Shown here: positions 5,974 to 44,300 of the stretch, piece by piece
Layout: the number at the start of each line of letters is the position of its first letter
Numbering within the stretch: position 1 is the first letter of the stretch
Assembly (NCBI GenBank): GCA_010909165.1
Contig: MU008156.1
Coordinates: forward strand, 930,001 to 994,000
Reading direction: 5' to 3'
DNA from: Anthoceros angustus
Taxonomy: Eukaryota; Plantae; Anthocerotophyta
Length of the DNA: 64,000 nucleotides
Program-made: the position numbers and the translations under genes
The notes under the pieces: model-generated
The model's input: only the letters and a program-made list of their open reading frames with translations
Databases searched by the model: none
Told to the model about the DNA's origin: nothing

Positions 5974-8900
5974 ATGGGAGACGACGGCGAGGAATTCCGT
6001 GGACATTCCCGGGCCGGGTCTCGGGTGGTGGCGACAGCGTGGAAGCCAGGGAGGCCTTTGCCTGCTTCTCGGCATTCCAGTGTCATCGACTGGCCTGCAG
6101 AGCGGGCGTCTGGATCGAGGGCCTGGCTGCACGGTCTGGTGCCTCCAGGAGAGCAAGGGGGGTCTCTTTCGGGGTCCCAGTACAGCATTCCCACGGTAGC
6201 AGGGTCCCAGGCCACCGATGACAGCAGCGTGGCGGTGCAGGAAGAGCTTCCTCCCCGAAGCTCGCAGGTTTCGGGTGATGTGGGGCCTGAATGGGCTCCC
6301 CGTGCACCACTGTTTCCCCGACTGTCCATCAGTGGGGCGCCGTTGAAGCTGGTTGATGCGATCTGGACAGGGGCCCAGGCGGAGGTTATGTCCTTTCTCC
6401 ACCACCCATTTCTCGGAGCTGTTATCACGCACAACGTGCCCACCGAGCTTCTGACGCAATACCTGAATGAAGAGGCCTTCCTCTTCTCTGCAGCAACTAT
6501 GTTGTGAGGCTGCTGACCTAGTTTCTATGTTCTGCTGGATTCAGGGGGTTGTTGTACGGATCTCTGACATGAGTGTGCTGTTGCAACACACAGATCTCAT
6601 CACCCGGTAGTGAGTGCTGCTTTGCTCAACGTGCCAAATTTTGTCAACACCTTGAGAGTTGTGCTTTATGACTTGGTAATGCTCACCTCTTAAGGCAACG
6701 GGGCTTAGAGGGTGGTCGCATTTTCGCTTGCGTGATGCCGCATTTTCTCATGCTGGCCAGAGTTTGTAGACAAGTTATGGCTGCAGCTCAGGGTTTGTGC
6801 ATGTCTCAGACTCAAGACGGCTGGAATGGTATATTTGCCACTCTTGATGGATTGCAATCACGTGACTTCAACAGCACAGTGGCGCAGCAGAAGCAATGTG
6901 GTCCTTCTTGCAACAAAAGTCGTCTTCCAATTACAACGTGGATGCTCTGGTTGCTTGGGTAGCCATTCTGCGCGTAAGGAGGCTTGTTGAAGCTGTCATT
7001 GGCAGGAGGATCCCCACGCAAGGAATAGGAAAGAGTCCATTTGTTGTGTGGATCAGCACTTATGGTGAAGAAGCATTCCAGGTCAGTGTATGATCCAGTT
7101 TGTGGTACTTCTGGCTTTGTACTTGTTGAGACTCGTGTCATTTTTGCTGAATGTGGACCAGCACGTACAGATCTGTGCTACGACACTGGAGGAAGCACTG
7201 GAATCCTGTTATCCACAAAGCCCTGACCAAGGAGAAATGCAACGGCTGCTGGATGTTTTCAGGACAACGATCAGGCTTGACATCGAAATGTTTTCAAACT
7301 TGTACTCTAGTGTTCCCAACTACACGGAGTATAAAATTGAACAGAATAGTCCATGGAACCCTTGTAATCTCCTCTTTGCCACAGACTATGACTGCACGTG
7401 TACAGTGAAGGATTCTTGTTACCTTCTAGTATGGGCTTCAGAGGCTACAGGGCGAATCAATGACGGCCGGCTGGTGCAGGCTCACCAGGCTATTTGCGTT
7501 GATCATGATGTGAGTGTGCTGGATTGTCTGGCATCTATGCCTGACTTCAATTTTGACCCGGGCCCTGAGCAATTTATATCGGAGATAAGGTTTGAGCTGT
7601 TGCCCGGAATGGACCCTGGTCTTGAATCAATGGCCAGAGCGATTCTCGACCAGGATTATATGGATATAGGGGATATTGCTGCAATGCAACCTGTTTCCGG
7701 GTTTGCAGCCATCCGAGAGGCGCTCCTGTGGCTAGCACAACTTGAAACTGACACAAATAAGGTACGAGACCAACAAGATTCAAATTTGGAAAGTTGTTAA
7801 GACCTCAGGTACATTATCTGACCCACAGTCTACGAAAACTGTGGGTTAGGCGACGTATCGAACTAAGCAAGATTAATAATGCATGTCCCATGTTATCCAA
7901 GGTTGACAAAGCTGGTTATCTCCTTTCTTTTGCAGAAAGTCATGGACCGTGGACTGTTGATAGGGCTAACCAGACAGACTATCAAGGCAGCGGGGAAGAA
8001 GGCTGCTATGCAAAACAACTGCCTCCAAGTACTCAAAAGACTAACAAAATCTGGGTGCTCTATCCATGTTATCTCCGCGAACTGGTCAAGGGATCTGATC
8101 TTGAGCGGACTTTCCTTTATCCCTGGTAGGAAGCTGCATCAAGGGGGCTTTACCCTCCTTCGTCTTGTCTCGTGTCGCTGTAATAAGGGGATGGGCAACG
8201 AGACCTAATGTAAGCTATGTCGTGTCATGCAGAGGGCATGCTTTATGTTCATTCCAATGATTTGGAGTATGAGGCATCTGGAACATCTAACGGGAAGTTC
8301 TCGAGTAGCGTCACAAACGCTTTTGACAAGGAGCACGTCTTAGAAGTGCTTCGAAGGATTGTGAATCAATATGCTGGGGTTGAACAGCCCTCCTCGCATT
8401 TTCTTCCTGACGATCAAGGAAGGATGGTTGTATACCTTGGAGATGCTCAGACTGACTTGTTGGCTCTACTTGATGCGGACCTTGGCATAGTTATTGGCAA
8501 AAACGCAGCTCTGAGACACATGCTAAGTAGATACAGGATTCGGTTGCTGCCACTCGTGGAGGCTTCAGCCCATATTTCTGTTTCTAGACTGTACAGTTCT
8601 CATCGCAGCTACAGGCAATCAGGAATCTTATTTGAAGCAAGTGGTTGGGAGGATGTTGAAGCCTGCCTCTTTGGGGATTGCACATTACAGGCCACTGATG
8701 ATTTCAGGGCCTTCTGCTGTCCACCAGGGCAACGAGGTGTTCTTCACAAGGAGAGAACAGGGCAGCAAAACAGGCTGTCCCAGTTCAGAACTTCTGTTGT
8801 GCAGTCAAACTCTTTTGGATCTGACATTTCATCTCCAGGCCTTCAGCCCATGCCGAAGTACCGCAGCTCTCAGGAATTTACGTCTGGAGATCAGCCTTTC

Positions 8901-10967
8901 GGTCAGAAGCCTCAAAGATTTTCGTCTGATGAGGGGCTGCATATGACAGGCCAAGGCGGTTATGGCCAAGGAGGTCAGTTTGGATCTTTCTCGCAAGGAT
9001 CGCCGATGGGAGGGCAAGGTGGATTTTCTGTGGGAGGTCAGTCTAAATCTCTCATGGCCTTTCCCAGACAAGAAGGTTACGGTGAAGGAGGTCAGTCAGG
9101 ATCCGTCTCTCAAGGATCTCTGATGGGAGGGCAAGGTGGATTTCCTTTGAGAGGTCAGTCTAAATCCCTCACGCCCTTTCCCAGACAAGAAGGTTCTGGT
9201 GAAGGAGGTCAGTCGAGATCTTTCTCTCAAGGAACTCGCTTCCCCGGACAAGAAGGTTATGGTGAAGGAGGTCAGTCAGGATCTTTCTCTCAAGGAACTC
9301 CCTTCCCCGGACAAGAAGGTTATGGCGAGGGAGGTCAGTCAGGATCTTTCTCTCAAGGAACGCCCTTTCCCGGACAAGCAGGTTATGGTGAGGGAGGATC
9401 TTTCTCTCAAGGAATGCCCTATCCCGGACAAGCAGGTTATGGTGAGGGAGGATCTTTCTCTCAAGGAATGCCCTATCCCGGACAAGCAGGTTACGGTGAG
9501 GGAGGATCGTTCTCTCAAGGAATGCCCTATCCCGGACAAGCAGGTTATGGTGAGGGAGTTCAGTCAGGATCTTTCTCTCAAGGCATGGCCTTTCCCATGC
9601 AAGTTGGTCAGGATGAGGGAGTCCGAACTGCATCATTTTCTCAAGGAATGCCCTTCCCTCGCCAGGAAGGTCAGGATGCATCTTTTTCCAGCGAGTTTCC
9701 GTTCCCCAGACAAGTTGGTCAGGATGAGGGAGGTCGAACTGCATCATTTGCTCACGAAATGCCCTTCCCTCGCCAGGAAGGTCAGGATGCATCTTTCTCC
9801 AGCGAGTTCCCGTTTCCCAAACAAGGTGCTTATGGTGATGGAGGTCTTAGTGGACCTTTCTCCGATGGTTTCCCCTTTCCCGAACAAATTGGTTACGATA
9901 AGGAGGGTCAGGGCGGATCGTCCTCACGGGGGATGATGCCCTTTGGTGCTCGAGGAGCTGATGGCCTGGAAGGTCCGACTGGATCCTTCTCGACAAGAAT
10001 GCCTGTTGTCGGAGAAGGTGAGCTCGATCAGAGAGGAGGATCATTCTCTGAAGAAATGCCGCCGTTTAGTGGGTTCGAAGGAGCACGTTCCTCACGAAGG
10101 CTTCCTTTCAGTCCAAGATTTTCCTTCACTATTGGATCGCAAGGGACTCCAGTAGCTAAGAAACAGTCCTTCAGCCAAGCCCCCGCGTTGACGCCCATGC
10201 CAAAGAACATGTGGATGTCGGCAGAGCTACAGCCAGGTGGGTACAAAGAAGACGTGCGCGTGGAGAAAGTGAATAGGGCTCCTTCCTTTACAGATGCGCC
10301 CTTGGGGGCTACGTTCCCATCGTTTGGAGCTCCCGATGCCTCAGTGAGTCAGTCTGGAAGGATGAGCACACCTCCGAAAACAAGGACCAGCACGCCTCCC
10401 AAGCCATCCTTCAGTCAAGGCGAAAGGTCGAGAGACAGAACGCCACCGAAAGGTAGACCCCTCACTCCAACGCTGCCACCTTTCCGTCAAGGAGCGCAAG
10501 GATTGGAGATGAAGGGGATGGACTTTCCAAGGATGAGCACGCCTCCGAACGTATCATTCAGTCAAGACCCTCCTGAGAGCTTCGACATGTCTAGGCGAGG
10601 CACTCTTCCCCAAAGCATGTCGTTCACTAGTCAGGCAAATCCTGGCAACCGTGATGATGGCTTCCCATCGTTTCCCAGAATGAGCACACCTCCCAAGACA
10701 AGGCAATCCAGTCAGGGAACTCCTGGATTTGGTGACGGAGATTTGGACGGTATGCTTCTTAAGAATTCCTACAGCCAGTCACCAGCTCAGGGGTTTCAAA
10801 CGGAGGGACCTCCCCTGCCCTTCTCTCCACCTCCACCTCTCAAGGGGATGCCTCGACCTTTGAAGGCCATGCCCCTGGCCATGATGCCCATGCCCCAAAA
10901 CATGGCCACAAATGCCCCGAATCCTCTGGGTGGCTTTCCCCAAGGATTTCAAGGTGAGGACGAATGA
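5974..10967 (+). CDS. TH2: TH2-like bifunctional TenA + HAD-phosphatase (thiamin monophosphate phosphatase family) with very long repetitive C-terminal extension; multi-exon
   Basis: Successive exons give TenA-like segments (FLHHPFLG, SPFVVWISTYGEEAFQ, FRTTIRLDIEMF), HAD motif I ATDYDCTCT, HVISANWSRDLI, HSNDLEY, motif IV VYLGDAQTDLLALLDADLGIVI and LFEASGWEDVEACLFG, collinear with plant TH2. The last exon stays open a further ~760 codons to TGA at 10965-10967. Junctions between 6500 and 6900 are not resolved. Confidence 0.85.
8940..9830 (+). repeat. In-frame coding tandem repeats (54-, 63- and 111-bp units) in the TH2-like tail
   Basis: GQAGYGEGGSFSQGMPYP-type 54-bp units x3, GQEGYGEGGQSGSFSQGTPFP-type 63-bp units x3, and a QVGQDEG...FSSEFPFP 111-bp unit x2. 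All unit lengths are multiples of 3. Confidence 0.95.
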
Positions 10968-11504
10968 TGGAATCATGGAACTAATTTTAGAGAGCACCGA
11001 GCAATGTGGGCTCCCGGCAAACCAGAATTTTCGCCTCTCATGTTGAACACATTATCTCTCTGTCTTTGATGTCGAGAACAACAGGTCTTTCCTACTACTC
11101 ATCAGAACAGAACCGATCTAACGTGCAGGGCAGTTCCGAGGACTAACAAGGCAGTTCTATCAGAGTGGTTACAAATCGTTGCATTTTCACTAACTCAAAC
11201 ACCATCTCATCCTGCATGGAACCTAACACAAGCGCTTTCATGAAAAAATGCCAGTTCCCTTTCTTTCTGCTCCTCCGCAGTCTTTGCTCCGGAGCTCCTG
11301 CATCCTTCCCAGTCTTTTGTACAGACCAAGACAAAGTAAGTAGCCTCCCCAATCTTCTTCTACCGACCAAGAAGAGTAACTATAATAACTTCATAACAAG
11401 AGTGATGAGGAATAGAAAAATTGCATTACAAAACATATACAACTAAGCCCGTATATAGGGAACACACAACCCTATTTAGGAAACCCTACCTAACAGAATA
11501 TCAT

Positions 11505-11754
11505 ACACCGGTTCCATTAATCTCTATATGGGAAAAGAAGACTTTATTATAAAAAAGAGACGGAAAAACCATTCACTTTTCAAAACTACACCGATTCCAT
11601 TAATCTCTATATGGGAAAAGAAGACTTTATTATAAAAAAGAGACGGAAAAACCATCCACTTTTCAAAACTACACCGATTCCATTAATCTCTATATGGGAA
11701 AAGAAGACTTTATTATAAAAAAGAGACGGAAAAACCATCCACTTTTCAAAACTA
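11505..11754. repeat. 83-bp tandem repeat, 3 near-identical copies
   Basis: ACACCG(G/A)TTCCATTAATCTCTATATGGGAAAAGAAGAC... recurs at 11505, 11588 and 11671. It lies just 3' of the CRE-like ORF on the minus strand. Confidence 0.97.
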
Positions 11755-11821
11755 CCAACCGCCCGAAGAACTTCATGGTCAGGATGTGAAAAGGCCTACT
11801 TACCACCGGTGTCGAAGAAGC

Positions 11822-12412
11822 TACCTCCCCACGCTCGTTGTCATTCTGTACACTGCGCTGGCCAACGCCTTCTGCAGAGGGATGGAAACCCTCTAGCGAA
11901 AGAAGGCAACAATACAAGAAAGAAGGAGGCCAACCCCATTCTTGCGGCTGTGATAAGCCTTAGCGCAGGCCTTGACGAACCTAGAGAAATCCTTGCCCAT
12001 GGCTCCGTGAGTCTCAATGGCAAGGGGGACGAAAGCGTGGCCGTTCTGCATAAGAAAGTACTTGTGGACCTTAGCTGTCGTGCATCCCTACACTGCCCAA
12101 CGTGGGGGATTAAGAATAACATGTTCGTAGAAACTATCCCGGATAAGATCGGTTACAACCACGTCAGCAACCGAAACCTGATTCCCCCATGTCAAAAATA
12201 GATCTGCCCTAAGCGAAACCCCGTTGAGTAGGATGTAGGGGCGCTCCCTAGATGGAAGAAACCCGCCTTCCCGAGCAGTAGAGAACATGATGTCCCGTAC
12301 GGCGTCATGCGTAACGATACGCTGCCCACCCGCGGGACAGCGAGCCAAGTGTGTCCCAAAGTCATCCTGCTGCAAGTTGAAAGAAAGCAAGCCAGAGGTT
12401 AGACCAAGCCAA
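11822..12412 (-). mobile_element. CRE-type non-LTR retrotransposon relic: C-terminal CCHC knuckle and restriction-like endonuclease (RLE), frameshifted
   Basis: Minus strand reads WLGL...DDFGTHLARCPAGGQRIVTHDAVRD...RADL...DVVVTD, then in another frame AKVHKY...FVPLAIETHGAMG...RVSIPLQKALA, the PD-(D/E)xK RLE signature of RLE-clade LINEs. Confidence 0.8.
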
Positions 12413-12447
12413 GAACAAGGTCTCCTAAGAAGTAGAGACGACTCCTC
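12413..12447 (+). repeat. Left terminal inverted repeat GAACAAGGTCTCCTAAGAAGTAGAGACGACTCCTC
   Basis: Matches the reverse complement of 23937-23972 with one mismatch and one small indel. Confidence 0.92.
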
Positions 12448-13989
12448 GTCTCTACTTTTGAGGGTGTGAAATTTGGGGTTTGACGATGGAAAACCGTGCT
12501 TTGTCACGTTTTCAAAACTTTGGCCAAAACCTTAAGTGTGAAAGTCCAAGTGAAGAATGAAACCATGTGTTTTGAGGGTTTTACATTATGGTTTTTTTTA
12601 AGGTAACACAATCCTCTAATTACCCACCACAAAATGGTTACGATCGAAGATGGAAACCATATGTAACAAGCCATGTAGTCATATGGACATCATGAATTTC
12701 AAAATGTCGACATAACGGGTTTGAAGGGTTGCATGCATGAGCGGTAACAACAAAAGGTGGATGCCGCATCACGTAATTCTATGACCGTGGATATCCGGTG
12801 AACGCGGCTTCATCGGTGAACTTGACTCAGCGCAAGTCAAGTGTTGGGTTCCCACGGATAGTGGCGATCATTTCTATGTTGCGAAACATGACATGAAATC
12901 GGAGGCCGTGCGGCTTGCATTCTCCAGTGCTCTCGAAAGTCCCCTCGAGGCACCAAGCGTTTGGATGTGTTGAGCGTCATTTGAACCTCACCGCTAACCG
13001 ACATAATCCATGCCCATTGGCCTAACCTAATCGGCTACAATGTTACGCATGCGTGTGGCGGTATGTATGACATATCCGCGAATCTGGGGATGGTTATGTC
13101 ATCGGACATGCTCAATGCTTCAGTGCGTATAGCCATCATGCGACCGTCTTCTTGGTAGTTTGTAAACGCCATGATGACAATACGCGGAATGTGGGAGGAG
13201 TTTGACAGTCGGCAGTTTTCGGGCTATTTTACGGGTTATGGCGGCGGCGGTTCTTATTGCAAGGGTGATCATGGGCCCGCTATGGTAGCATCACGCCTCA
13301 ACATTCAATGGCGACAAAGAACAAAGCGCAAAATCGTATGCTTGCAATCCAGCTGAAAACAAGCACACGAGAACATGCACTCGGGTTGACGGTCATCACC
13401 AGGACACAACCGGACAAAGATAGCTCTGTTCCAGCCTCAACACCGGTTGTCCGGTGTTTGTGCTCACCAGGTAAGCGGACACCTCTACATGCGTCGTCTC
13501 ACCAACGATGCTGGAGTCGAACACCGAACAGATTTGCGGGCATTACCAATGCCCCACCCAGCAGTCACTGAGATTCACAACCATTAGGTTCAAATGCCCC
13601 AGGTCTTTCCGGGCTGTGCAGCCTATCCATGGTAGGGGGGTGAACCAATGGATCATAGTCCTTAGTGGTCGTGTCCAAGGGAAGGTGACCTTGTCCATCG
13701 CCGCCCCCGAGAGCTGTAGCACTATGTTCCTGTGCCCAAACTCGCCACTGCCCTGCTCCCTATTACCTTTGTCAAGCGCAATGGCCACACCGCCCACAAG
13801 ACAAGACATGGAAGGATCATCACACCTGGGTGTAGAATGCTTCCGATTGCGTGGCGCTTGAGATCCACAAAAGCGCGGCTCCTTGCCACATTGTTCATCA
13901 TCGGTTCTTTGGTGAGCGTCTTAGGCCCCGCGTAGCCTTCAACCTCTCCCAACTCTTCCTCCTCGCTTGGCAGTTCTCTAAAGTATTGA

Positions 13990-16900
13990 GACGGAGGTCC
14001 ATGAATTGAGCTGCCTGGGATCTCGTCTCACGATATCACGTTGCGTCCGCGAGGCGGCTACCATACGATCCGAGCACGCACACCCATCCAGACCCACTCG
14101 CCTTCCACGTATGCGGCTCCATCAACTTCCTCAACAACTGATAGGCTTCGGTATGGGAAACTACCCTATCATCTCGTGTTATAACACGACTTATGTTCCA
14201 CCTTCTCCTCAAAGCGGGTTGTCAACCTGCCATCATTCATACGATGAAGCTGCGGTGGTGAATGTTGTGGCACACAATCACCTTCAACGATCCAGCCCGT
14301 GGTGATATAATCCCTGCATCATACATGCATTGCAACGCTTTCACATTAGTTTTGTGCGGAAGCAGTGACACTCCTTTACAAGCGCAAGCAAAACCTCCCG
14401 TACCATGGACATGTCATCGGGAATGAAATACCACGACGCGAAATACCTCGATGTCGTGATGCCGGAATTGCAATATGATATTTTCAAACTCATCGGTGAA
14501 TCGCTGTCATACTCCTTGAGTTGGCATCCGATGCAACCCTCGTGGCAAGTCCAATAGGAGCAGGGCAAGCGGACGGGGTTCCACAACGAGCCATTCTCAC
14601 GATGTTACCACATATTATTCCTATCTGCATGATCTCCGGAAGCATCTCGATCGTCTTCAACTTATCGGATGGAGGTCTCCTCATTGCTCATCGCCATAAT
14701 CTTCCATGCTTTGGCCTTCAACACATGTTCCTTGAAACTCTCGGAGTGCACTCCACGTTAGGCAAGCATTGGCTCGCGCACAACAAGGCAAAAACCACAT
14801 CAACCATGAGTGTTCATGGGCATATGGGAGTGTACATGGGCATAGCGTTGATGCCGAAAACAAATCGGATGCCCACCAAAGATTCTTAGAAATCAAACAT
14901 ATGACAAGCACCGGCCGTCCGGTGTGGACATTCCATACTTGCTCGGGTTCACACTTACCATATTTTTGAAAGCCGGTTGGAAGTTCTTGATCCGGTCCAG
15001 TCTTGTATTGAGGATACCGCTCCCTAACCTGCTCAAACGCCTCGCAATTCGGGTTCTTCGCAAGTGTAGCGTGAATGAGGTTCGATTTTGGCTTTCTCCA
15101 CCCAATCCTGCATTTGCCGTAAACTCATTTCCCCAGACAAGACCTTCATGCATGCTGTCTTCAAATTGTTGTTGCCAGCTGCCGAATGTTCAATCCCTTG
15201 AAAGCACTTCCACACTCTCACTGGCACATCCGCATCTTTAACCTCTATGACTACAAGGTCTCGCACGGCTGCAGCAGTTGGCCTTGTCTTCCTACTGGCC
15301 TTTGTTTGTTTGGCAGCTAGGGCTCGGGCCGCATCTATTTGTTCAGGCAACTGCTTACATTCCCACTTCTCAAATATCTCGTCCACATACCTCCACACTT
15401 CTTCATCAACCTTCGCCACGCAGTAATCAAGTGTCCCGTTGTCCACCAGTCGGTGATACTGAACCTTGGGGCCATGCTTTGCTGCATCCCACTTGGGGAT
15501 CCTGCCTAGGCGGGCATACACATCCAGCTTCCAGTCTACATCGCACTTCAAGCCCTTCGCCTCGCACATCAACTCACTCGATGTAACGTACCACATCCAT
15601 GAAGGTGAATGTCTTCCGGCATCTGCGATGGTGTTGTGGTGCTGGCTACGATCCTCATCTCGTCCTCGTGAGTCCGGCTAGCACATATGCATCCATCCAC
15701 TTGAACTCTTCCTTCATTGGGTGGATCGAGCGGGACCTTGCACGGAAGGAATGGTTCCCTCCCAAGACGAAGAAATTGTAAAGCCCTCATCCACCTTCTC
15801 AACGTCAAAGTTCTCTTTGTGAGGACACTGCGAGGGTCGACAACCACAACCATTGGCGACACCGCTACCCATGGGCGGTGTTTCATCTTCGCATCAAAGC
15901 CTCTACCCACGAGATCCGGCTTCCTCACCTTAGTGCCTCACAGATCTTGAAGTGCGGCCTTGATTGGCAACTTCAAGGTAGACTCCCGGACTCTCTTGAT
16001 AGCAATACCGTCCCTTTCGACGTCCCGACTTGCATCTGCTTTTATGGCGTGAGCCTATCATCGTCGATGGCATGTTGTCTTAGCTCTCTCCACAAACCTT
16101 GGCGGTGGAACCTCTTCCTCCTCCTCCTCCACAATTCCGAGCTTCTCCGTCTTGCCACAGGTTTCTTGGCTTTCTGCTACCGCCTTTGTCCCTTTTCCGG
16201 ATATGTTTGCCATCTGCAGGCCTCTCCTCTTTCCCCTTTCTTCAAATTTCCCCTGAAGGCCTCACTGCACCCTCCTGCGATCGACAGCCCAAGACCGCAG
16301 AACCATCACGTGCGGGGATAATATCCGAGGTCATCACGCTCATCGGCCTCTTCTTGAGTTCTCCTCCTCCTCTTCCGACCCACCTTGACTTCCTCCAAGC
16401 TGCGCATCTTCGTCCTCCACAAGGTAGAATGCCATCCATAAAGCCCTCGGTGTCCTCGGGTTCGTCTGGGCGTCCTCCTCACACCGTCGGACTACCTTGA
16501 GTAAAATGGAAGTGGCTCACCAAGTCTGCCGCAGTGAAACAGGACGTCGGTGGCGGTAGTATCATGGACACCACCGGCTTGGCGCGGAAGCAAGCTGCTG
16601 GATCCCCATCGATGTGGTATTGAAGAAGCATTGTTGGGATGCCTCTTCTTGCAGCGATGTCGGGTTGCTTCCCAACAGCCTTTGTTGGGTTGCTTCTCAA
16701 TTTGCATTGTTGGTTTGCTTCCCGAGATGCATTGTTGGGATGCCTCTTCTTGATGGCACGCCCCGGACCCACTCCTACTCTCGGCGACTCTTGGGTTCAA
16801 TCACGGCCCGGACTTGCTCGAACCAACAGTTTGCCTGATTCCTTCTAAGCAAATTTGGTGCAACACTTTGTGGAACACTTTGTGTCCATCATTGTTACGC

Positions 16901-17459
16901 AACCCCTGCAACAGTTCCTCTCTCACACTTTCCGGCTGGCAAGCCACGGGGTCAAAAGTCCGGATCGCAGTGAGTATACTCGGACGGCCGTGGGGTCAGG
17001 CTTGAGAAGCTGTCTGGTCTTCAGAGTGCAGAGGAAAATTACGTACCCTTGGTCATCCTTCTCCACAAATCTGCGTGAACAAAACAGCACCAAGACAGGA
17101 AGACTTTATACTTGAGTGTTGCATCCAAGATGTCTGATACAGTATGTCCAGCAGGCGTTCTGAGACCAATTCCTGTCCGACATATCAAAGGGAGAGTGTT
17201 CCAGGAACATCTTTCTGATCATGTCGATTTCCGCCTGCTTGTATGGACTTTGGAATGATGTTCACGTCGGTGACGAGGTAGTGTGTCGCGGGGTCAAAGT
17301 TGTCATGCTATGGGTCTTGGAGGCCTTCGGGACCGGACTCGTGACAATGTTCAGGGGCATCTGCGAATCGCCGGCCTTCCGCCGGGCCCGTTTCTTCTCA
17401 GCCGCGAGCGCGGCGTCTGGCTCAGCACCTTTACTCCGCTTCTTGGTCTGAGGTGCCAT
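13990..17459 (-). pseudogene. Transposon cargo gene: basic N-terminus, ParB/Sulfiredoxin-like domain, beta-class N6-adenine/N4-cytosine DNA methyltransferase domain; many frameshifts and stops
   Basis: Candidate ATG at 17459 (MAPQTKKRSK, after a TTTTGCAG acceptor); YNFFVLGGNHSFRAR at 15736-15780; LLLLDLPRGL at about 14534-14563; across frameshifts FPYxKPISLLRKLMEPHT-EGEWVLDGCACS-MVAASRTQRDIV-DPRQ at about 14010-14162. Motif order IV...X-I indicates beta class. Whether all parts form one gene is inferred. Confidence 0.7.
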
Positions 17460-18061
17460 CTGCAAAACACAAACCAAGTAGCAATGAGGCATCACGCACT
17501 ATGGATTATGGATCAAGTAGCACGCTGACCCACCTTGATACCCTCCTCTTGAATCACCGGACAACCGGTGAGGATGAAGCGCCGATGATCCGGAGATCCA
17601 CCGACTCCTCGGCGATATGAACCTCCGATATGGAAGTGGTCGAATACCACCAGTTACCAAAATACTTGAGTGAACCTTTGGTGCCCGCTATATGCATCTC
17701 CTCGCAATATTTTCGCCAAACCGCCTTTCCAGCGATCTGACGGGTGGATGGCACAGTGTGACGGCGATATGAACCTCCGATATGGAAGTGGCTCACCAAG
17801 TCTGCGGCCAAATGAGTGGAATCGCAAATTTGGGTTGATGCCCAAGTAGCCGTTCCGCCATGTTTCGCGAGCAGGACACAAGCTAAACAAAGAATAAAGC
17901 ATATTTTATGGAATATGCCTAGTTTTGCCGCTGGCAAAACTCAATTTCCTATTGCAAAATCTCGGGCTCCTCGATTCTCAATGCAGGAATGCATTTAAGG
18001 ATCCTCAAGCGCCATGATTTGTAGCCGCAAAGTAGATATCCGTCCTAATTGTCAATAATCA

Positions 18062-21000
18062 ATGCGGTCCAAAGAACCGAGGCATCTATACATGATGTTG
18101 AGCGGGGCAATCTGCGGGTCTCCTCCTCGAGCACACGGCGTTCTCAACAATTGCGTTTTCACTAGTCACGAGCAATGGCAAGCGATCTCAATGCGAGGAG
18201 GAGTTTTTGATTTGGTGAACGGACTAGTGACCGATGAAGACATCGGCCATGTGTATGAGTCGGATATCGTGGACTTGGCGGCGAGGCCGCGGATGCTAGG
18301 CATGGGGTCCACTAGGCAATGTGTCAAATTCCACGTGGTCGACATTCAAGACGTTGCGCACCCTGTAAACCCCGGACGTCCGGTGAAAGGTATCTCAAGA
18401 CCCGGACACGCATCGGATTTGGATCAAACCGACTTCTGGGTGATACGTTGGGTGGCTGCAAGTGATGGAGACCTTTACTTGTTTGATCCGGGATGGACTC
18501 GGGCAGGCGGCGAGACCGAGCAAATTGCAGCACATGTGGACCGGCATGTCCGAGCTCGACAACGCGCACTGGAGCGGCGGCCCCGATATCCACCACCCGA
18601 CAGGCGCAACCTCGGCCCACCTCGACAGCCTGCACTCGGCACTGTATACCCAGGTCTGTTCAAATCGCCAGGTGCCAAGAAATTGGCAAGGATGTTCTGC
18701 TCTGATCCAAATCCACGCGCAAAGCGGGTGGCTCCTGGGCGCGCGGAAGGTGACAAGGTGGCACCTACAACAAGTCCATGGTGTGCTTCGCAAGAGTACC
18801 ATCAACCTTGTGTCACACCACCTGGCACGAATGACAACAACACGGATTCTGAAGCAGAGAGTGTTGGTGAGTCTCCTGACTGCGGTGAGAAGATGCATGT
18901 GATCGTAGACTTCGGTTTCGATTTCGCGGCATTGGGTCATGGAGGACTGCCGGGCGAGCAGGCGACCAAACTGCACGTGATCCAATTGCCTTGTTTGGAG
19001 ATGTGCTGGCACTAGATCACAATGAAGATTTGCCCGAAATGCTGCCCCCTGCTAATCCTAAGTCCAGGGGGTTGGAGTTGCAATCTCGCGATAGGGTTGT
19101 TTGCTCAACAAAGAACCGTGCTGCAAGGGTTAAGCTGGATCATGTCATGGCGAAGCATTGTAATCGGGCGAAGCTTTCAGCAGACATGAAGAGACAATGT
19201 TGTACGAAAAAGTGTTTAGCAAGGCGGGGAATGGCAGACTGAAGTCACTTCGTTGTTCTTTTTTTTCCATGACAAAAGGGGAGCAGGAACAGCATTTGCA
19301 AGACCTTATTGATGTTGTCGAAGACGAGGAAACAGGTATGGTGACCGGATGGGTGAACAAGCTGCCACATGGGAAGGTTTCAATTTGTGTAAGGGCATTC
19401 TGCCGAGTTTTCTGTATTGGTGCACTACGATATCGGAATGCCGGGCAGTGCGAAGGGACTAGGTTTGCCGAGGCGGGCTGGTAAAATTCAACTTCATACG
19501 GACCGCAGTCATGTGGATGGATATGTTTTTCAAAAGAAACGTGGAAAGACTACCCAACAGGGAAGTGTTCAACCTACCGGATACATTCACAAAAGAGGAG
19601 ATTTACATTGAGTATGCTAGGCAGGCTAGAGCAATTACCACTCATGTTTGTTATAGCTATTTTTGCAAGCTGTGGATACGGCATTTCCGGTCCGTCAAGA
19701 TTCCAAGATGCAACCGATTCTCGGTCTGTGCTGACTGTGAGAAGCTTAAAGCGAAAATTAAAAACGCCGGAAACGACAGGGAGCAAGGTACTGAGTATGA
19801 ACCGCTCCCCTTTTTAAGCACGGGATGTCCGGTGATTGCTAGGTGTCCTTTTTTATAGTAGTTGTCGGCGGAAAACCCTAGACCCTGTTCTTTAGGGTTC
19901 AGTACAAAGGTTGATGTAGCCAGTGCTGGACTGGAGTTGTTCGGGGCTGCTATTGTGATGGCACTTATGCGGTATGTGCAGATAGACTTAGGGAACTCCT
20001 CAATTACCACCGGATCAACAATGATGGAGCGGGCGAAATGGCAAAGCATCGCGGCAAGTGTATGGCTCAACCGACCAAGTACAGGGATTGCGATAGATGG
20101 TATGGACCAAAAGAAAGCGAGTTGCCTCATTTCCATGAGTGCCCAAAGATGTGGATAGTCTTTGCTCGTCTCTGTCCATGTGGTTGGAGTTTTGGTGTTT
20201 AACAAATACATGAGAACTTATGTTTACAGCTATCCAAATCTGCGAAATGACCCTAACGGACAATTGCGTAGTCCAGCATGTTATTAACGGATGGGAGGGC
20301 CAGTTGCCTCAAACTCTTTACTGCGGATGGACAATACTTTGCTCGAATAAGAACTAAGAAGTGTTGGCGTATTGCGCCATGTTAGTGGACCGAGGTATTT
20401 TCAAGAAGGTGAAACTAGGATTTCTAATTGTTGGCCATACCCATGATCGATTGATCAAATGTTTTCCGTTTTACATTGTGCTAAATCAAGGAGGCCTACA
20501 CCTTGCCGAGCTAATCGGTTGCCTTGAGAGGGCTTATACTCGACACCAAAGATCTATCTTATGAAAGAGGTGCCCAACTTTAAGCAATATTTGTGGCACT
20601 GGGGTCCGTCTGCAACATTTACTCTCCATAATCACAGTTTCCAACATCAGTTTAAAATCACTCGCGAAGAGTTGCCTAGTCATGTGTTTGTGACGGTCCT
20701 GAGGTGCAAGCAGTTTTCCACTGCTGCGCATTGGAGCCCAGATGGTGGTGTTCAGCTGTTGCGGGATGGAGTCCCAGAGAGGGAGATTATTGCGGCTCCA
20801 CTACTGCCACTGCAGGTCAGGGCGAAATCCAAGGGCCAAAGAGAACATGCAGAAGTGCGGCCTGATAGGGCTATCGCTGGAGTGGAAGACAACAGACAGC
20901 GTTTAAGAACTTCCACAGAAGTCTTCAATGGTCATCAGCTCGCCTGGTGGGATGGTTTTTGGGAAGAGCAGTTGGCCATAGCGGGTGTAGTAGCGTCTGG

Positions 21001-21100
21001 AGCTCTTCGTCCATTGGACACAACATGGAAATGGTATAACCGGGAGGAGCATTCAAGAACCCGCAGTGGCTCTTCCGGATGAAGTGATAGTGGACGCTAC
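18062..21100 (+). pseudogene. Decayed DDE transposase, Sola1-related/DUF7869-like
   Basis: CCTKKC and RFSVCADCEKLK Cys motifs; AIDGMDQKK at about 20096; LxMDN...NKN at 20327-20354; LAYCAMLVDRGIFKKVKLGFLIVGHTHD-IDQMFS at 20370-20468 across frameshifts. Superfamily assignment is from motif recall and is unverified. Confidence 0.8.
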
Positions 21101-23936
21101 ACTTGCGAGGCATATTGGACATGAGCGAGAGGTTTACAGGCCACAGAATCTTGCGAAGGGGCGTCGAGCGGCAACCGGAGGATCGGTTAAAGAGATCCAG
21201 GTGGCATGATGATTGCGGTCCAGTGGAGATGATCCGGACGTCCTTTCGGCTGGGTAAGGTTGGATGTAGACCATGAAGCCTGGACCCGGTAGCGCAAGTC
21301 CACCGGTGGCGCATCGAAAACCCTAATGCATTGGAGGGTAGGTATTCGGAAGAGTGGGTGCCAACCAACCCTCCGGGCCGTAGAAAAGGTCGCGGGCACC
21401 CTTTGAAGAAACATGTGCAACCAATCAAGCTTTTGGAGACCACAATCATGGGTTATGATTTCGAGTTGACGAGGAACAAGACTTTGAGCAAAGACACAAT
21501 GGACATCTTTGAGGAGGAAGGTCTTGAGTTACGAGCGAGCCAAGTGAGGAACCGCTTTGCTTCCTCCTGATGGTGAAGCAAGTGGTGACGAACGAATTGA
21601 TTCGAAGACTTGGACAACGTTGAATCTTGATGCATCCGTTGATTATTTGGTAGACTTCTTTGGAAGGTGTGGACTCGGTGAGGAGCCGGATCTTAACCCA
21701 CCAAGGATTAATTTCGAGGTTGGCCCGGAGAGAGTCTTGAGGTCGAGGGCGGTGAATACATAGTCGTGACATAGATGTTTAGGGTATATGTGGATGTGTG
21801 ATCCGTGTTCATGTTTTGACATAGAGTTTTGATCTTGATGCATTGTGCCTTTTGCACGGATGTCCGTGCTAAAGCTCTCGTCGTTTTAATTGTGGTGAGC
21901 ATTCCGCTTGTTTACGGCCAGCGTATTTGGGTTTTGTGATAGGGTGCAGGGCTCGGGCTTCTGACAGTTGAGGTGCAGGCCGCGGGCTTTTGAGCTATTG
22001 GGGGCAGGTTGGGGACAGCGGGGAGCGTAAACCTGTACACGCTGCCATGTGGTATTTTGGCCCTTTGCCAAGTACTCAGCAGTTTACTCTCCAACAACAG
22101 GCCGCAACCAATTCTCCTGTGTTTGCCTTCCAGTTTGAGCGGCACGCAGCGGAGGAAGAATCCATTCAGGTGTGCGTCGTCAATTTTCCAGTGTGCATCG
22201 GTGGTGGCGCGCCTCCACTAGACGGGTGTTAAGAGTGTTGTTGCAGACCAAAACAGTGGATATGAGGACCAGGCGTGGCGGCTACCAGTCCCCACCACGG
22301 GTCACAGCTGCAGACATTGCAGAGAAGAGGGCCAGGAGGAGAGCCACTTTGAGGGAGCGTCGTGGGGGCGTCCCTCCGGAGGCATCATCGCCAATTGGTG
22401 GCCAACCCTTATTCGAGTGGCATCCGTTTGCCACTCCCAAAGCCTCTGCGTGGTTCCACAGGGGGGAGGTGGGGATAAGGGTTTCTTTGAGGGAGCCCAG
22501 GAGGTGAGGACTATAAGGAGGAGGAGGAGGCTGAGGCCCGTGACATCCGCCATGATCTCACGATGGTGGGAAGGAGGTGAAGGCGGTGAGATGGAGCTGG
22601 AGGTTCGACCATATCGGCCGTAAAGCTGAGCAATGAGGAGTTGACGAAGGAGGAGCTAGAGGCGGAAGAGGCGGTGTGGGCAAGAAGGCGTCGGAGGGAG
22701 CTTGCGCTTGTAGTGGCGTGAAGCATGCCAAGGCATTGGCGGTATGGGGTTCGGATGTGGCCGGAGCCTCTGGTGAGTGAAGGCTTTGGTAGTAAGGTGT
22801 TTCAATTCATGCATCATGGGTTCTTGCGGTGATTCTGGTTTTGGTCTTTGTTGATGTTGCTTCGCATCAGCCGTTGATGTTCTTCTTTGCATCGGTTGAT
22901 ATTCTTGGTCTTGGTATTCTTTATTCTTCTTTGCATGGGTAGTAAGGTCTTCTTTGTGAGCCAATGATGTGCTGCTCTTCATGTATGTAGGTGCCAACAT
23001 ATAGGCGGGAGGTTCTTGTCTGTGGAGGAAGCAAGCGGTGATGAGGTCCCTCCTTTTTGGGAGCCACGAAGCCACAGCTAGGATAGGCTTGTTTTGGTGT
23101 GGGTGGAGTGCTAGAGCACCGGCCGTAGACTTGAAACTTGATCATACCAGTAGTGGGCGTAAATTGTGGCTTTGTCGGACAATGTGGTGCAAAGGTCACC
23201 GGATGTCCGGTGCCTTTGGCGACAAAAGAAAAGCTTGACTTGGCCAGATCGCAGATCCAACCTAGGTCCGACACCCTAGTCTATTCGCTTATGAGTATGG
23301 GTCACTTGACTAAATTCGAAAAGTGACCGGTTGTCCGTGTCGGTTATATGGTGCCATGGCACTTTTCTTTTAATATATGTGAGCATTTTTGTATAGTTTG
23401 GAACGCGGACATATAGTTGGGCATATGGCCCATGTGGGATATTGGTGTCTTATACCTCTAGTCTCCCACTATAGTACCAAATCATATGTGTGTATGCATG
23501 TTTGTGTGTCGGGTAGTTGACATGAAGACACATGTCCTTCTTGTTTTTTATGGTGCCACAACCTTGCGATCGGTAAGGGCAGGATGTCGGGCATACTTGG
23601 ACCAATGTGTACAAAAACCGTGTTAGCATATTGAGGTGGCATTGCGGTTTTCAACTTAGCACATTGGTCGAAATTGTCATAAATGTCCAGTTCAAAGCGA
23701 CAAAGCGGTTTTTGCGAAAATGCCCTTAAAAGCCTTAAAGCGGGGTATTTTCCAACTTGATCCAACCATGGACCTTTCTTAACGGGGTTAAAAGACATCA
23801 AAAGGTAGAAAAGATGCTTTTGACAACTACGGAAATGGAAATAGTGGTTTTTGCCCTTGGTTTTGGAAAAGCACCAAATCCAGATTGGTTGCCAATTTGT
23901 AGGTCGAATGTGACCAAATGGACATCATCTCTAAAA

Positions 23937-23972
23937 GAGGAGTGTGTCTCTACTTCTTAAGAGACCTTGTTC
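23937..23972 (-). repeat. Right terminal inverted repeat
   Basis: Reverse complement is GAACAAGGTCTCTTAAGAAGTAGAGACACACTCCTC. Confidence 0.92.
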
Positions 23973-24110
23973 AAAGCGGCGTATCGCGGTGGAAAAGTTG
24001 TGGTGCGATCGGTAAGGCGGGAGGTTCTTGTCTTGGTCAAATAGGATATGCCTCATTGCAGAAGCGAGAACCGCCCCTTCCCGAGCAAGAGCGGATACGG
24101 AATGGCAGCC
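23973..24110 (-). mobile_element. Upstream continuation of the CRE-type LINE ORF, displaced by the DNA transposon
   Basis: Minus strand encodes RIRSCSGRG...AYP...NFSTAIRR, the segment that normally precedes RLGL and the CCHC knuckle found at 12412 and below. Confidence 0.6.
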
Positions 24111-25485
24111 TTGTTGGAATATGTGGCCCCCGCCCAGCCTGACAGAGCTGCCCCCTGATTCATTCAAGTGGGAGGATGGAGGAGATTCTTTGCTGGTCCT
24201 GTACAAGAGGGCGCATCCTGCATTCCTGCTGTAACCAGAAGCCATGACCGATGTGCTGCTGTGACGCAATGAAGGCCAGCGTCCTTCCCAGCAGTAGCAG
24301 TTTGGAGAGGATGTAAAAGTACTAGACCTTGTGTTCCTGAAGCATATGAGCATTAAGTGTGGTTTAGATTTGCCCACCCGCATTACATCTATGGATGATA
24401 GAATATAGAGTATCTTAGGGTTTAGTGGTATTAAATCATAATACTATATAGAGATTAATTTCTTAGGGAGCTGGGCTCTCTCTGCCCCAGTGTCTTGTCC
24501 TCTCGTTTCTTCATTCGGCATTCACATATCTTGGAGGCTTCTGTCGAGGGCGTTGAGGAGGGGACTTTTCCCATGCAGGCCTCGCTAAGATTAGCCAGGG
24601 ACTCTTTATTCTACGAGGCGAGGGGCTGCCATTGCGTCTTTTTCCTCGCTTCCCGATATTGGGCTCCGGGGGCTTCAGGCATCCCTCCTGGAGAAACAGT
24701 ACGGGCAAGCACAGTTGGCCCTCCTCTGGGATTCCTCCATTCCTAGGCCTACTCGGGTTCCATTATGCAGAGCAATGCATCCACATGACAGGCCTGGAGT
24801 AAGAAAAGACTTTTTGTGGGCACTATAAAAGATGTGAAGCTTGCCCTGCCCTGTTGAATATGTAGACAGGTAAGCAAGTGGTAGCTCCTCTTATGTAACG
24901 TCGTGTGTGTCAGTCCGCATGCTGAGTTGTGGTGAAGGCTGGATGGTCCCACTGTTGGCCATTGGAAGCCTACTTGGGGCCACACGCAATAGGCCACCGG
25001 CCCACATGAAGGAGGATGGTGTCCCACTTCATGTCTTGGTCAAATAGGATATGCCTCATTGCAGAAGCGAAGAGGAAGTGGAGGACAAAGAGGAGACCGA
25101 CCGACCTTGATACCGCCCGACCTTTACCAGCTCCCTTCCAAGTGCGAGTTCTGGCTGGCAGGGCGCCTTGGAAGGCTGTTGAGCTTCTGCGGTGGTATTT
25201 GGATGTTGGACCATGTCAGGCAGCTGTAGGACAAGATTGCGGGGAGGTGCCCGTCTGACATAATGCCTCCCCGCAATCTTTGTCTCCTTTGGCACGTTGC
25301 TGGGGACTTCGAGCTTTTCCTTTTTTCAGTCGCAGCGTGATCGTGGCGGTCACAAAAACGTGGATTGTCCTGTTGCTTACTGTGGACATGCTTCGACGTC
25401 TATGATTGGGATAGCAAGCCTCATTCGGTGCTATGGGCTTTTGGGATGGCAGAGGAGCTAAGGAGACACCTTATTACTTCACCTA

Positions 25486-27104
25486 CAATTGGTCAGGATG
25501 AGGATGAGGACGAGGGAGGTCGAACTGCATCATTTTCTCAATCACCAGGAAGGTCAGGGTGCAACTTCTCCAGCGAGTTCCCGTTTCCCAAACAACGTGC
25601 ACATGGTGATGGAGGTCTTACTCGACCTGTCTCCGGAAGTTTCCCCTTTCCCGAAGAAACTGTTCACGATGAGGAGGGTCAGGGTGGATCGTTCTCACAG
25701 GGGATTACACCTTTTGATTCTCAAGGAACTGATGGCCGGGAAGGTCCGACTGGATCCTGCTCGACAAGAATGCCTGTTGCCGGAGAAGGTGACCTTGATC
25801 AGAGAGGAGGATCGTTCTCTGAAGGAATGCCGCCGTTTAGTGGGTTCGAAGGAGCACGTTCCTCACGAAGGCTTCCTTTCAGTCGAAGATTTTCCTTCAC
25901 TATTGGACCGTAAGGGACTGCAGTAGCTAAGAAACAATCCTCCAGCCAACCCCCCACGTTGGCGCCCATGCCAATGAACATGTGGATGTCGGCGGAGCTA
26001 CAGCCAGGTCGGTACCAAGAAGATATGCGCTTGGAGAATGTGAATAGGGCTCCTTCCTTTACAGATGCACCCCTGGGGCCTACGTTCCCATCGTTTGGAC
26101 CTCCCGTTGCCTCAGTGAGTAAATCTGGAAGGATGAGCACACCTCCGAAACAAAGACCAGCACGCCTCCCAAGCCATCCTTCAAGAAAGGTGAAAGGTCG
26201 AGAGACAGAACGCCACCAAAAGGTAGACTTCTCACTCCTCCAACGCTGTCACCTTTCGCCAAGGAGCTGAAGGGTTGGAGATGAAGGGGATGGACTTTCC
26301 AAGGATGAGCACGCCTCCAAACGTGTCATTCAGTCGAGACCCTTCGGAAGGCTCCGACTGTCTAGGCGAGGCACTCCCCCCCCACACAGCCATGTCCTTC
26401 ATTAGTCAGGCATATCTTGGCAACCGTGATGACCTCCTGGACTTGGTGACGGAGATTGGACGGCATGTCCTTCAGTCAGGCAGATGCTGACAACCGTGAC
26501 GATGGACTCCCATCGTTTCCCAGAATGAGCACACCTCCCAACACGAGGCAATCCAGTCATCAGGGACCTCCTGGAGTCGGTGACGGAGACGTGGACGGCA
26601 TGCCTCTTGAGAATTCCTTGAGTCAATCACCAGCTCAGGGGTTTCAAACCGTGGGACCTCTCCACCTCCTCCTCTCAAGGGACTGCCTCGACCTTCGAAG
26701 GCCATGCCCCTGGCCATGATGCCCATGCCCCTGGCCATGATGCCCATGCCCCAGAACATGGCCACAAATGCCCCAAATCCTCTGGGTGGCTTTCCCCAAG
26801 GATTTCAAGCTAAGGACGAATAATGGAATCATAGACTAATTTCAGAGAGCAACGAGCAATGTGGGCTCCCGGCAAACCAGAATTTTCGCCTCTCATGTTG
26901 ATGACATATTAGCTCTCCGTCCTTGATGTCGAGAACAACAGGTCTTTCCTACAGCTCATCAGAACAGAAACGATCTAACGTGCAGGGCAGTTCCGAGGAC
27001 TAAGAAGGCAGTTCTATCAGAGTGGTTACAAATCGTAGCATTCTCATTAACTCAACACCATCTCATCGTGCATGGCACCTAACAAATGCGCTTGCAAGAA
27101 AAAA
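25486..27104 (+). pseudogene. Degenerate duplicate of the 3' part (repeat tail and 3' UTR) of the TH2-like gene
   Basis: Collinear with 9711-11248, including the 3' UTR. CAA>TAA stop at 25911-25913 (TIGSQ becomes TIGP*) and later frameshifts. No TenA/HAD sequence is recognisable upstream. Confidence 0.93.
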
Positions 27105-27268
27105 CGCGCTACCATGAATGAATTGAGGAGTCATCTACTTTCGTTGATTGAATTGAGATCTATTTGATAGCGGTAGGGGAAACCAATCTGAAGCTGTTTG
27201 CCAGAGTTTGTGAAGCAACCCCAACCTAAATACCTCGTCCAACCACTGTACCTCTACCCTTCAGCAAA

Positions 27269-34913: not shown

Positions 34914-37275
34914 GCCAAATGGACACACATTTATAAGAACGTGCTATTAAGCACCCAGCGCTGGATCAGTACTTGGATGGGGTGCTTATAGGGAGTGGAT
35001 GCCCTTGGTGCTAGTAGCTTAGGCACATCATGGTACAAGTTGTCAATATGGTACAAGTTGTCAATATGGGGTGCCTAGAGGGAATCGATGCCCTTAGCGC
35101 TAGTAGCTTAGGCAGACCATGGTACAAGTTGTCAAGTACCAAGTCCCATGATGGAAATTCGTGGACTTACAATGTCTTCTTCTTTTTCTATATGAAAAGG
35201 AGGTAAATAAAGTCATTTCGTAAATGAAAGGGAGGTAAATCAAGGAGACATGAAAACAAGTGGATAGAGAGAAGGAAACTTATTGGACATAGTTGGCTGT
35301 ATGTACATGATTAACAGCCTTAAACAAACACAATGAGTGCTCATGTGTAGTCAAGTTTAATCACTATACGTATGATAAATTTCGTTGTTTATTGCCAACT
35401 TGTTCTTATCGCGTTGGTTACTGCCTGTTTGTTTATGCTAATGGATGCAAAAGATGGCTCCAACCGTGGCAAGTCCCAACATCCAGCTTTACAACATTCC
35501 ATTGCCAGTGTCGGCCGACTTCCAGGACTTGGGAGGTGGCTTGAACAATGCCAATGGAGTATTCCCTTTACCGGACACGGTAAGATTTATTCCACTGGTG
35601 GCTTTCGATGGAAGCGCTGCTGTTTTGGTGTGAAGCATGTGGCTGCACCGGTAAGAGCACGTACAGATCTAGTGGATTGTGCATGTCCTCCTGTGATGTG
35701 CATAGCGCTGTTGGATGAAACGGTGACGCTGTTGTGCGTCGACGGTAAGATGGTGTGCATTGCTGGATGAGCACGGGATGGCAGGTTGATGTTGATCGTA
35801 GACGGTTACCCTCAGACCAGCTGTGATGTACCTCACCCTGATTCTGCAAGCGTGGTTGCCTATGTGTGTGTTTTCGTGGCAATCGTTCGTGGCAATCGTT
35901 TCACAACAAACGAAGTGAGTGCGTGTGATGTCCGTGTTTCGGAAGCAAACGTTGAAGTCCCTGGTCGACAAATTCAATGCAGGTCTTGTGTTGTTGGTTC
36001 GTGTATGATGCATGGGAAAGCGCATCGTCACCTCATATGTGTAGCTCTGTCAACTAACAGGCACCGAAATTTCTTGACAACTGGAGCTTGCGTGCAAATG
36101 GACACGTTGTGTGGGCGGAAGCGGAAGGAGGCCGTGAAATTCAAGCTGGCCCACGGCTTCAATATTTTTTCCAACCAGACAGTGTACACGACTCCCAAGA
36201 GGCTCTGTCGACAGACTCAGCACCAGGTGCTGGGCGCGTTGCACGGCTAGCATCTGCATTGAACGACATTTGGGCAGGCCACTTTGTTGCCGGAGGCGGG
36301 CAGCGGGGTTCACCACCCTGTTGTTGCAAAATATGGTGGATGCAGTTGTGGAAACGATGGAGAACAGGGAGCTGGTGCAAGCATTGATCCGCAAACGTGG
36401 AGTGCCATGGATTAAATTAAAGAAGAACTGGAACAACAACACGCAGGAGGGCCGGCGAAAGGGGCGAAGGTGAAGCCCCTCCTGTATGGGGGCTTGAGTG
36501 CACCCAGACACATGATGTTCCTTAAAGTCATTCGATCGAAACGTGCTATTTATTAGATCCAAATTCGGCTAGTACACCAAGACACGAAACAATCGGTATG
36601 TGGACGCGGCGAAAGCTCGTGCAAGGGAGCGGAACCGGCTGAAAAAGGACCTGGCAGAAGAGTTGAAGCCCCCAATAGTAGATTTTTTTTTTAATTTGGT
36701 ATTTTGAAAATAAATCAAAACAACCCCGGGGGAGAAATCTTCAGCAAGGGTTCTGATTCCCCTATGTTACACATCGTATCATCCCAACAGGAAGAGACCC
36801 AATAGTAGATGACAAGGTGTGGAAGGAGCCCTAGCTCCCTATGTTACACATCGTATCATCCCAACAGGAAGAGACCCAATAGTAGATGACAAGGTGTGGA
36901 AGGAGCCCTAGCTCGTGAGTTGGGCCAGGGTCGAACTGCGACAACATGGCAATTTTTTGCCATCCACGGCACAGCTTGCTGCTCAGGCCCGACTTGAGAA
37001 ATCTAAGGGAGAAGGGCCGAATCCATTGCGCGCGACCACATTGATGTGGGCGTGCGGGTTAGGTTTCCAAGTTTGAAGAAGAAGAAGAAGAATTTTATTG
37101 AAGCCCACTAAGGACGGATTTCCGTCATGGGACTTGGTACGTGACAACTTGTACCATGGTGTGCTTAAGCTACTTGCACCAAGGGCATCCATTCCCTTCA
37201 GGCACCCCATCTAAGTATCGATCTAATCGTAGGATGCTTAATAATAACATTCTTATAAATGTGTGTCCATTTGGC
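34914..37275. mobile_element. Non-autonomous element with long (~160-bp) terminal inverted repeats and unidentified internal sequence
   Basis: 34914-35161 versus the reverse complement of 37117-37275: first 26 bp identical (GCCAAATGGACACACATTTATAAGAA), then high similarity. The left arm contains internal duplications. No clear TSD; outer boundaries uncertain. Confidence 0.75.
36760..36914. repeat. 77-bp perfect tandem duplication
   Basis: CCCTATGTTACACATCGTATC...GGAGCCCTAGCT occurs twice with period 77. Confidence 0.95.
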
Positions 37276-43284: not shown

Positions 43285-43734
43285 GTGCGCCAAATGGGCG
43301 CACTAGTTTTGAGGTAGTAACATCCAAGTACCCTATGTCCACATAAGTAGATACATAGTCTTTGAAATGGTTAATCATTATGGTGTCGAATCATCAGAAT
43401 TTCTCATGTAACCTCCTTAGCTCTTTTATTCCCAGCAAAAAGTGAAGTTCAACTTCAATTCCATAGAATACTTGCTCCATTTGTTCCAACATGTGTTAAC
43501 AATGTCTCATCGTATCAAGTTTAGTAGTGTCTGAAACGAAACTTGTCATCCAAGTCCTTATTGCACTACTCCCACAATGTACGACAAGATATGTAGCTGT
43601 TTTGAATGTAGGTGCTCATCATCGTTGTGAGAGGGGGAGGTTCACGTTTTGGTATTTAATCCAAAGATGGTTTTTCAGCTTACCACTACCTCATACATGA
43701 AAATACGAGGTTGACGTCGGTCATGTTGGGTTCT

Positions 43735-44300
43735 GAAAACATGAAACTGCTCTTCTTAAAACGTGAAACTGCCCTTTTGAAAACGTGAAACTGCTCTTCT
43801 GGAAATGTGAAACTGCTCTTGTGAAAAAACATGAAACTGCTCTTGAGAAAACGTAAAACTGCTCTTCTGAAAACGTAAAACTGCTCTTGAGAAAAAACAT
43901 GAAACTGCTCTTATAAAAACGTGAAACTGCTCTTCTGGAAAAACAGGAAACTCGTCTTCTGAAAACGTGAAACTGCTCTTCTAATACGTGAAAGTCGTCT
44001 TCTGAAAACGTGAAACTGCTCTTCTAATACATGGAACTATTCTGGAACTGTAAAACTGCTCCCGAAAATGTGTAAACGAGAAACTGCTCGTCTGAAACTG
44101 CTGAACTGAAAAAGTGAGACTACTCTTCTGGAACCGATGTTCTGGAACCGTGAAACCAGCTTCTGGAGAAGTGAACTACTCTTCTGGAAACCATGTTCTG
44201 GAACCGTGATATCAGCTCCTGGAAAAGTGAACTGTTCTTCTGGAACCGTGAAACTGTGAAACCGGCTCCTGGAACAGTGATCAGAGACTGCTCTTGACTG
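43735..44300. repeat. Minisatellite, ~22-24-bp unit GAAAACGTGAAACTGCTCTTCT (about 14 copies to ~44040, then more degenerate)
   Basis: GAAACTGCTCTT recurs at intervals of about 22-25 bp. Confidence 0.92.

Follow-up and report, generated by a model that had tools for sequence, protein, structure and literature searches.

The transposon Sola1-1_Ec32 of Ectocarpus carries, opposite its transposase gene, a gene for a 1104-aa protein in which a ParB-like region is combined with an N4C/N6A methyltransferase (PMC12477816). The element has AACCG termini and a 4-bp target-site duplication (TSD) (PMC12477816, supplement), and the same account cites similar ParB-like plus methyltransferase proteins for green and red algae. 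Sola1 has been recorded for Physcomitrella (PMC9033089). The Marchantia enzymes MpDN4MT1a/b and the bdelloid enzyme N4CMT carry SPPY motifs, are encoded by host genes and have demonstrated 4mC activity (bioRxiv 2021.02.12.428880; PMC8885841). On other mobile elements, the N6A-methyltransferase domains of DIRS1 retrotransposons are likely inactive (PMC4738411), and C5 methyltransferases are carried by retrotransposons (PMC12344493). The parts of Iyer et al. (PMC4738411) that were surveyed contain no such land-plant clade. A literature search on transposon-borne amino-methyltransferases returned no land-plant description, a weak result since the same search missed the Ectocarpus paper.

The locus described here resembles Sola1-1_Ec32 in being a large element with terminal inverted repeats (TIR), in carrying an accessory gene of similar size opposite the transposase gene, and in its AAC-starting termini and 4-bp TSD (here identical at three of four positions). 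Its methyltransferase domain likewise lies behind a ParB-like front, the ParB-likeness being judged here by eye. It differs in length (11.6 kb against 21.5 kb), in the TIR (36 bp against 282 bp), in its plant-like host and in the alteration of motifs IV and I, and the two systems are likened by layout. Because the layout matches that of the published element, the locus is of a kind already known. By this comparison the element is likely a Sola1-type DNA transposon, and its accessory gene resembles the algal accessory proteins in layout.

Like MpDN4MT1a/b and N4CMT, the gene represents a bacterial-type beta-class amino-methyltransferase in a eukaryote; unlike them it is transposon cargo, has an Asp at the start of motif IV and is known from sequence alone. 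With the DIRS1 and C5 cases it shares a methyltransferase on a eukaryotic mobile element (and, with DIRS1, likely inactivity), whereas both the methyltransferase class and the element type are different. Permuted order, spacing, length, KP..LL and VLD-type motifs agree with prokaryotic and phage beta-class enzymes (PF01555; YhdJ, CcrM, M.RsrI, M.PvuII), the closest subtype fit being DPPY/DLPY. Unlike these enzymes, the gene is fused, transposon-borne and probably intron-containing, its aromatic residue is replaced by Arg and its first Gly by Cys, and it gives no direct Pfam match.

The element and its surroundings

The window (the whole stretch of DNA analysed, 64,000 nucleotides) contains Pfam domains of GT34, tyrosyl-tRNA synthetase, LptF/G, WD40, tubulin and Exo84, a eukaryotic, plant-like setting. 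An element of 11.6 kb (12414-23971) is bounded by a 36-nt inverted repeat (92%) and flanked by an imperfect 4-bp target duplication (Table 1). At 12413 a public contig ceases to match the window and continues in different sequence. A longer TIR of 300 bp was considered and rejected, as 88 of 300 shuffles were as good. Both flanks have high repeat depth and, when the empty site is joined, read through in one frame; the flanking repeat, which we take from its motifs to be non-LTR retrotransposon-like, had no Pfam match.

Table 1. Features of the element and of its accessory gene.
Feature	Position	Strand	Basis or remark
3' half of non-LTR retrotransposon-like repeat (insertion target; presumed type)	11780..12413	minus	other half 23972 to ~24450
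Left terminal inverted repeat, starts AACAAGG; flank CAAG	12414..12447	plus	36 nt, 92%; contig junction
Beta-class (permuted) amino-methyltransferase-like domain	about 14625-13980	minus	glocal frameshift-aware profile match, tile and shuffle controls; ~15 apparent frameshifts
Motif I position, DGCACS	14068..14088	minus	frame reading and profile alignment; Cys for Gly
Motif IV position, DLPR	14540..14551	minus	frame reading and profile alignment; Arg codon CGA
Likely intron	14785..14958	minus	GTAAGT donor 14958; acceptor ~14785 inferred from P0007 register, AG unseen in window
Upstream coding part, starts VLGGNHS, then helical region	14999..15769	minus	six homologues; P0007 alignment
Likely 5' part: ATG 17459, basic NLS-like start, acidic stretch, first half of ParB-like region	15770..17459	minus	sequence only; no homologue covers
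DUF7869 transposase-like gene, in pieces	18062..21100	plus	Pfam and motifs: Cys cluster, DGMDQ, MDN, GHTH
Right terminal inverted repeat; flank CAAA	23937..23971	minus	inverted-repeat match and junction reading

The plus-strand gene matches PF25273 (DUF7869) at 20358-20561 (E 1.7e-10), and has DGMDQ, MDN and GHTH motifs; it is a putative DDE transposase gene. The intact 317-codon ORF at 18062-19015 (plus), which lies upstream of these motifs, had no family match and is a candidate 5' part of the transposase gene. The accessory gene lies head-to-head with this gene, on the opposite strand. Duplicated motifs of 27-30 nt occur in or near the intergenic stretch (16506-16752 and 17610-17808) and are candidate promoter or binding sites. 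The sequence-only reading had treated the methyltransferase domain alone and overlooked the larger gene, placed within a TIR transposon of published layout.

Several other repeats were noted in the window. Paralogous, Gly/Gln/Phe-rich repetitive coding copies (~87% identical) flank the element at 7069-11250 and 25341-27107, the right-hand copy being frameshifted. The left-hand copy follows a presumably HAD-like, thiamine-phosphatase-like stretch, which gave no Pfam match. Three 83-nt tandem copies are present at 11504-11755 and a 22-nt tandem array of ~13 copies at 43720-44250. A second element-like stretch of AT-rich DNA (34914-37275) has inverted arms of 82-97 nt about 2 kb apart. Pieces of an LptF/LptG permease domain lie on the minus strand at 46918-48971, in plant-like nuclear context.

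The methyltransferase-like domain and its gene

Reference profiles were built from sequences on phage contigs that are related to E. coli YhdJ (n=28, later 81 non-redundant sequences), and the DNA was scored by a frameshift-aware Viterbi procedure with several profiles and per-shift penalties (-4 to -10 bits). All the peptides named in the sequence-only reading were found in minus-strand frames: LLLLDLPRGL (Asp codon 14551), VVVFHS, FPY / PIPKPIS (~14160), LLRKLMEPHT, EGEWV, LDGCACS (Asp 14088), MVAASRTQRDIV and DPRQ. That reading had called the domain invisible in the ORF track. None of three single, unjoined frames over the domain matched Pfam at E<=10. No methyltransferase came out of a Pfam search that covered 47 ORFs, these three frames and 123 stop-to-stop frames, the last made up of 121 from a list of 125 and of 2 host ORFs.

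In glocal (whole-domain) scoring with the 81-sequence profile, akin to the frameshift-aware Pfam alignment that had been proposed as a check, the domain ranked first of 140 window tiles at penalties of -5 (z 7.3) and -7 (z 6.2), with no shuffle of 100 as high in either case. At the strictest penalty, -10, the result was marginal (rank 3/140, 1/100 shuffles, z 3.6). Local scoring at -5 and -4 bits also placed the domain tile first of 140 (0/120 shuffles as high); at -10 and -7 bits it stayed at noise level, and the 28-sequence local profile returned only noise. The path through the DPPY subprofile (14625-13979) set IICGN, LLLLDLPRG, VVVFHS, KP..LL and DGCACS on the model motifs in permuted (beta) order, motif IV preceding motifs X-I-II in a single domain of ~220-230 aa. 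The location proposed earlier (14000..14570) thus holds, with the upstream limit moved to ~14625. The exact frame joins across the domain have more than one solution, and a motif III/IV submodel alone reached no significance. Because several penalties and profiles were tried and the III/IV half was not significant, support for a beta-class amino-methyltransferase fold in this stretch is good but not absolute.

Protein searches and searches of viral, metagenome and genome contigs returned no intact homologue of the domain. Longer relatives, sought in three word-index searches of proteins, and homologous loci, sought in the viral, metagenome and genome contigs, gave zero hits; PDB sequence searches gave no match, and exact look-up of 8 window proteins matched none. 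The joins are therefore supported by a distant profile, and the motif changes by a single noisy copy.

The domain forms the rear of a long, probably intron-containing gene with a likely start at ~17459, ~3.5 kb separating the ATG from the domain end. Among 1.84 billion representatives, the ORF at 15036-15677 had six homologues (the best at 54% identity, E 1.5e-45), all of them from Logan contigs and none extending into the methyltransferase domain. One of these sequences, P0007, was aligned to 15769-14999 in a frameshift-aware manner (232 bits); over the 257 aligned codons there were five shifts and no stop. P0001 and P0007 diverge exactly at the GTAAGT donor, where P0001 continues through; P0007 resumes in the window register at ~14782 and ends shortly after the intron. 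An intron is likely because the two part at the donor and P0007 is back in register past it, and the transcript behind P0007 was likely spliced. Positions 14737-14952 are missing from a diverged contig. A further run (X2), presumed to be RNA, covers none of the accessory gene and is uninformative on its expression.

We take VLGGNHS to resemble a ParB motif, by eye. The ParB-like front had no match in Pfam, PHROGs, NCBIfam, PDB or a narrow 9-sequence phage profile, and a phage ParB-fused profile gave no signal on either gene part. Atlas assigned DUF3723 at 0.91 to the ParB-like region, a recognition below the Atlas threshold, and a primase-like lead was also weak. An AlphaFold model of P0001 had a pLDDT of 45 and no Foldseek match. 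Past the methyltransferase domain, further coding-looking frames on the minus strand (13400-13970) may represent a C-terminal domain; they had no family match.

Frameshifts and active-site motifs

The region 14010-14620 was covered by 44 contigs from one public run (X1), and the longest 8 of the 44 together had 14 gap letters over 618 nt and not one substitution. The differences between contigs and window were 1-2 base indels, nine of ten of them at CG/CNG against a background of 0.19 (12 of the 19 rows listed, duplicates counted once). Across 11500-25500, differences from public contigs were also mostly indels at CG/CNG sites. The run contains a fraction of 0.14 of the sampled window words; it is possibly the window's own source, and the contig comparison is therefore not independent. 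Four of the five frameshifts against P0007 lie, by eye, in CG/CNG-type contexts. Five hand-picked contig insertions gave one open frame through DLPR; with the contig-supported insertions added, the local score at -5 fell from 12.2 to 7.3. The contig over motif X-I retains most of the breaks. For a duplicated host gene of this window the differences are 89 substitutions and 9 gaps. CAG+CTG is depleted (0.54 in the domain and 0.73 in the element against 1.24-1.84 in five host-gene regions), and CpG o/e is 1.0, without depletion.

Nanopore consensus errors are known to cluster at methylated CCWGG (PMC6591954). The frameshifts look technical because the indels come without substitutions and nine of the ten listed are at CG/CNG, and they are quite probably long-read errors at methylated cytosines and not decay; a real methylation-linked deletion process, unusual if so, is considerably less probable. 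Decay, as first proposed for this stretch, is thus doubtful for the frameshifts, which are confined to indels at CG/CNG and bring no stop against P0007.

At motif IV the fourth residue is Arg, as the sequence-only reading had it (DLPR, not DPPY). This position is aromatic in all 77 references with a residue there (n=81 set) and Arg in none; in the N4CMT model the corresponding Tyr stacks the target base (PMC10406627). CGA is more than one base from every aromatic codon, so that Tyr-to-Arg needs at least two changes. None of the indels in the 12 rows listed, out of 19, fell in motif IV, where contig depth is high; substitutions near contig ends are outside these rows. Position 5 of motif I is Gly in 80/80 references and Cys in 0/80; the Cys here amounts to a single-base change in error-prone sequence, the second Gly appears after a frame join only, and one public contig spans the motif without substitutions. 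Two further residues are natural: Leu at motif IV position 2 (16/81 references) and Cys at the Phe position of motif I (I-3, 15/81). The earlier claim that the aromatic residue and FxGxG were lost is accordingly sound for Tyr-to-Arg and, in the sequence as read, for Gly-to-Cys, and overstated for FxGxG as a whole. Motif IV retains its Asp and Pro, and KP..LL and the acidic motif II position are likewise present. D-type subprofiles fitted better (z 5.3 and 5.9) than SPPY (z 2.7), with subprofiles of unequal size, none of which shows the substrate; this gives a weak hint of 6mA ancestry, so that the earlier argument from the Asp start gains slight support.

Since Tyr-to-Arg is not a one-base change, DLPR is likely a real family trait and would point to a non-catalytic DNA binder. 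The altered active site is likely inactive, and, because motif IV lacks its aromatic residue, the domain should not be classed as an active N6_N4 methyltransferase.

That this copy is truly dead, with real deletions at methylated cytosines and motif changes marking the decay of a once active enzyme, appears rather doubtful. The breaks of motif X-I, most of them shared by one contig, would fit such a history, as would the CAG+CTG depletion, which could also come from mutation; yet indel-only differences do not resemble the usual kind of decay that this window shows, the aligned codons are free of stops, CpG is undepleted, both terminal repeats are still present, and the Arg would have taken two base changes or more.

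An intact gene encoding an active 6mA/4mC writer on its own element, with a non-canonical site or with a canonical one masked by errors, is unlikely. The residues retained in motifs IV, X and II, the algal relative predicted as a writer, the plant and animal 4mC writers of the beta class and the density of errors in the region all speak for it; against it stand the residues at motifs IV and I, found in none of the references, and a motif IV free of listed indels despite high depth. A bolder form of this idea, which we think improbable, is that a young, intact land-plant transposon encodes a working amino-methyltransferase that marks the element's own copies (6mA/4mC) and so controls transposition or blocks 5mC silencing, such genes being hidden by methylation-linked long-read errors.

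It is very improbable that the methyltransferase likeness arose by chance, through free frame-joining within an unrelated transposon gene: about 15 joins were required, several penalties were tried, single frames had no Pfam match and local scoring was silent at the two stricter penalties, but 139 other tiles and 100 shuffles treated with equal freedom scored far lower (z 6.2-7.3), the domain fits in its length and in the order and spacing of its motifs, and the context agrees independently with a published element.

Proposed origin and possible role of the accessory gene

The explanation we favour, held at about even confidence, is that this is a helper gene of a likely Sola1-type transposon whose product likely binds the DNA of its own element without methylating it. 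A bacterial- or phage-type methyltransferase with an Asp start (probably 6mA) would have been captured as transposon cargo and would then, in this lineage, have lost the base-stacking aromatic residue and the SAM-loop glycine. The element would be fairly young and its frameshifts mostly long-read errors at methylated cytosines, in which case the gene itself may be uninterrupted. The ParB-like front and the methyltransferase fold are predicted to grip element DNA, at its ends or at the repeated motifs between the genes, and the DNA-bound helper may aid the transposase or protect the element from CG/CHG silencing.

The likely read-error artefact implies that copies judged dead may be intact. The algal accessory class, so far only predicted, is extended here by a complete element, both termini included, from a plant-like genome, which also provides a target that can be tested. 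Should the altered site prove to be a family trait, it would be an example of an enzyme turned DNA binder. The locus bears on whether DNA-marking enzymes travel on transposons as part of their own equipment, and on where the 4mC/6mA writers of plants, that of Marchantia among them, originated.
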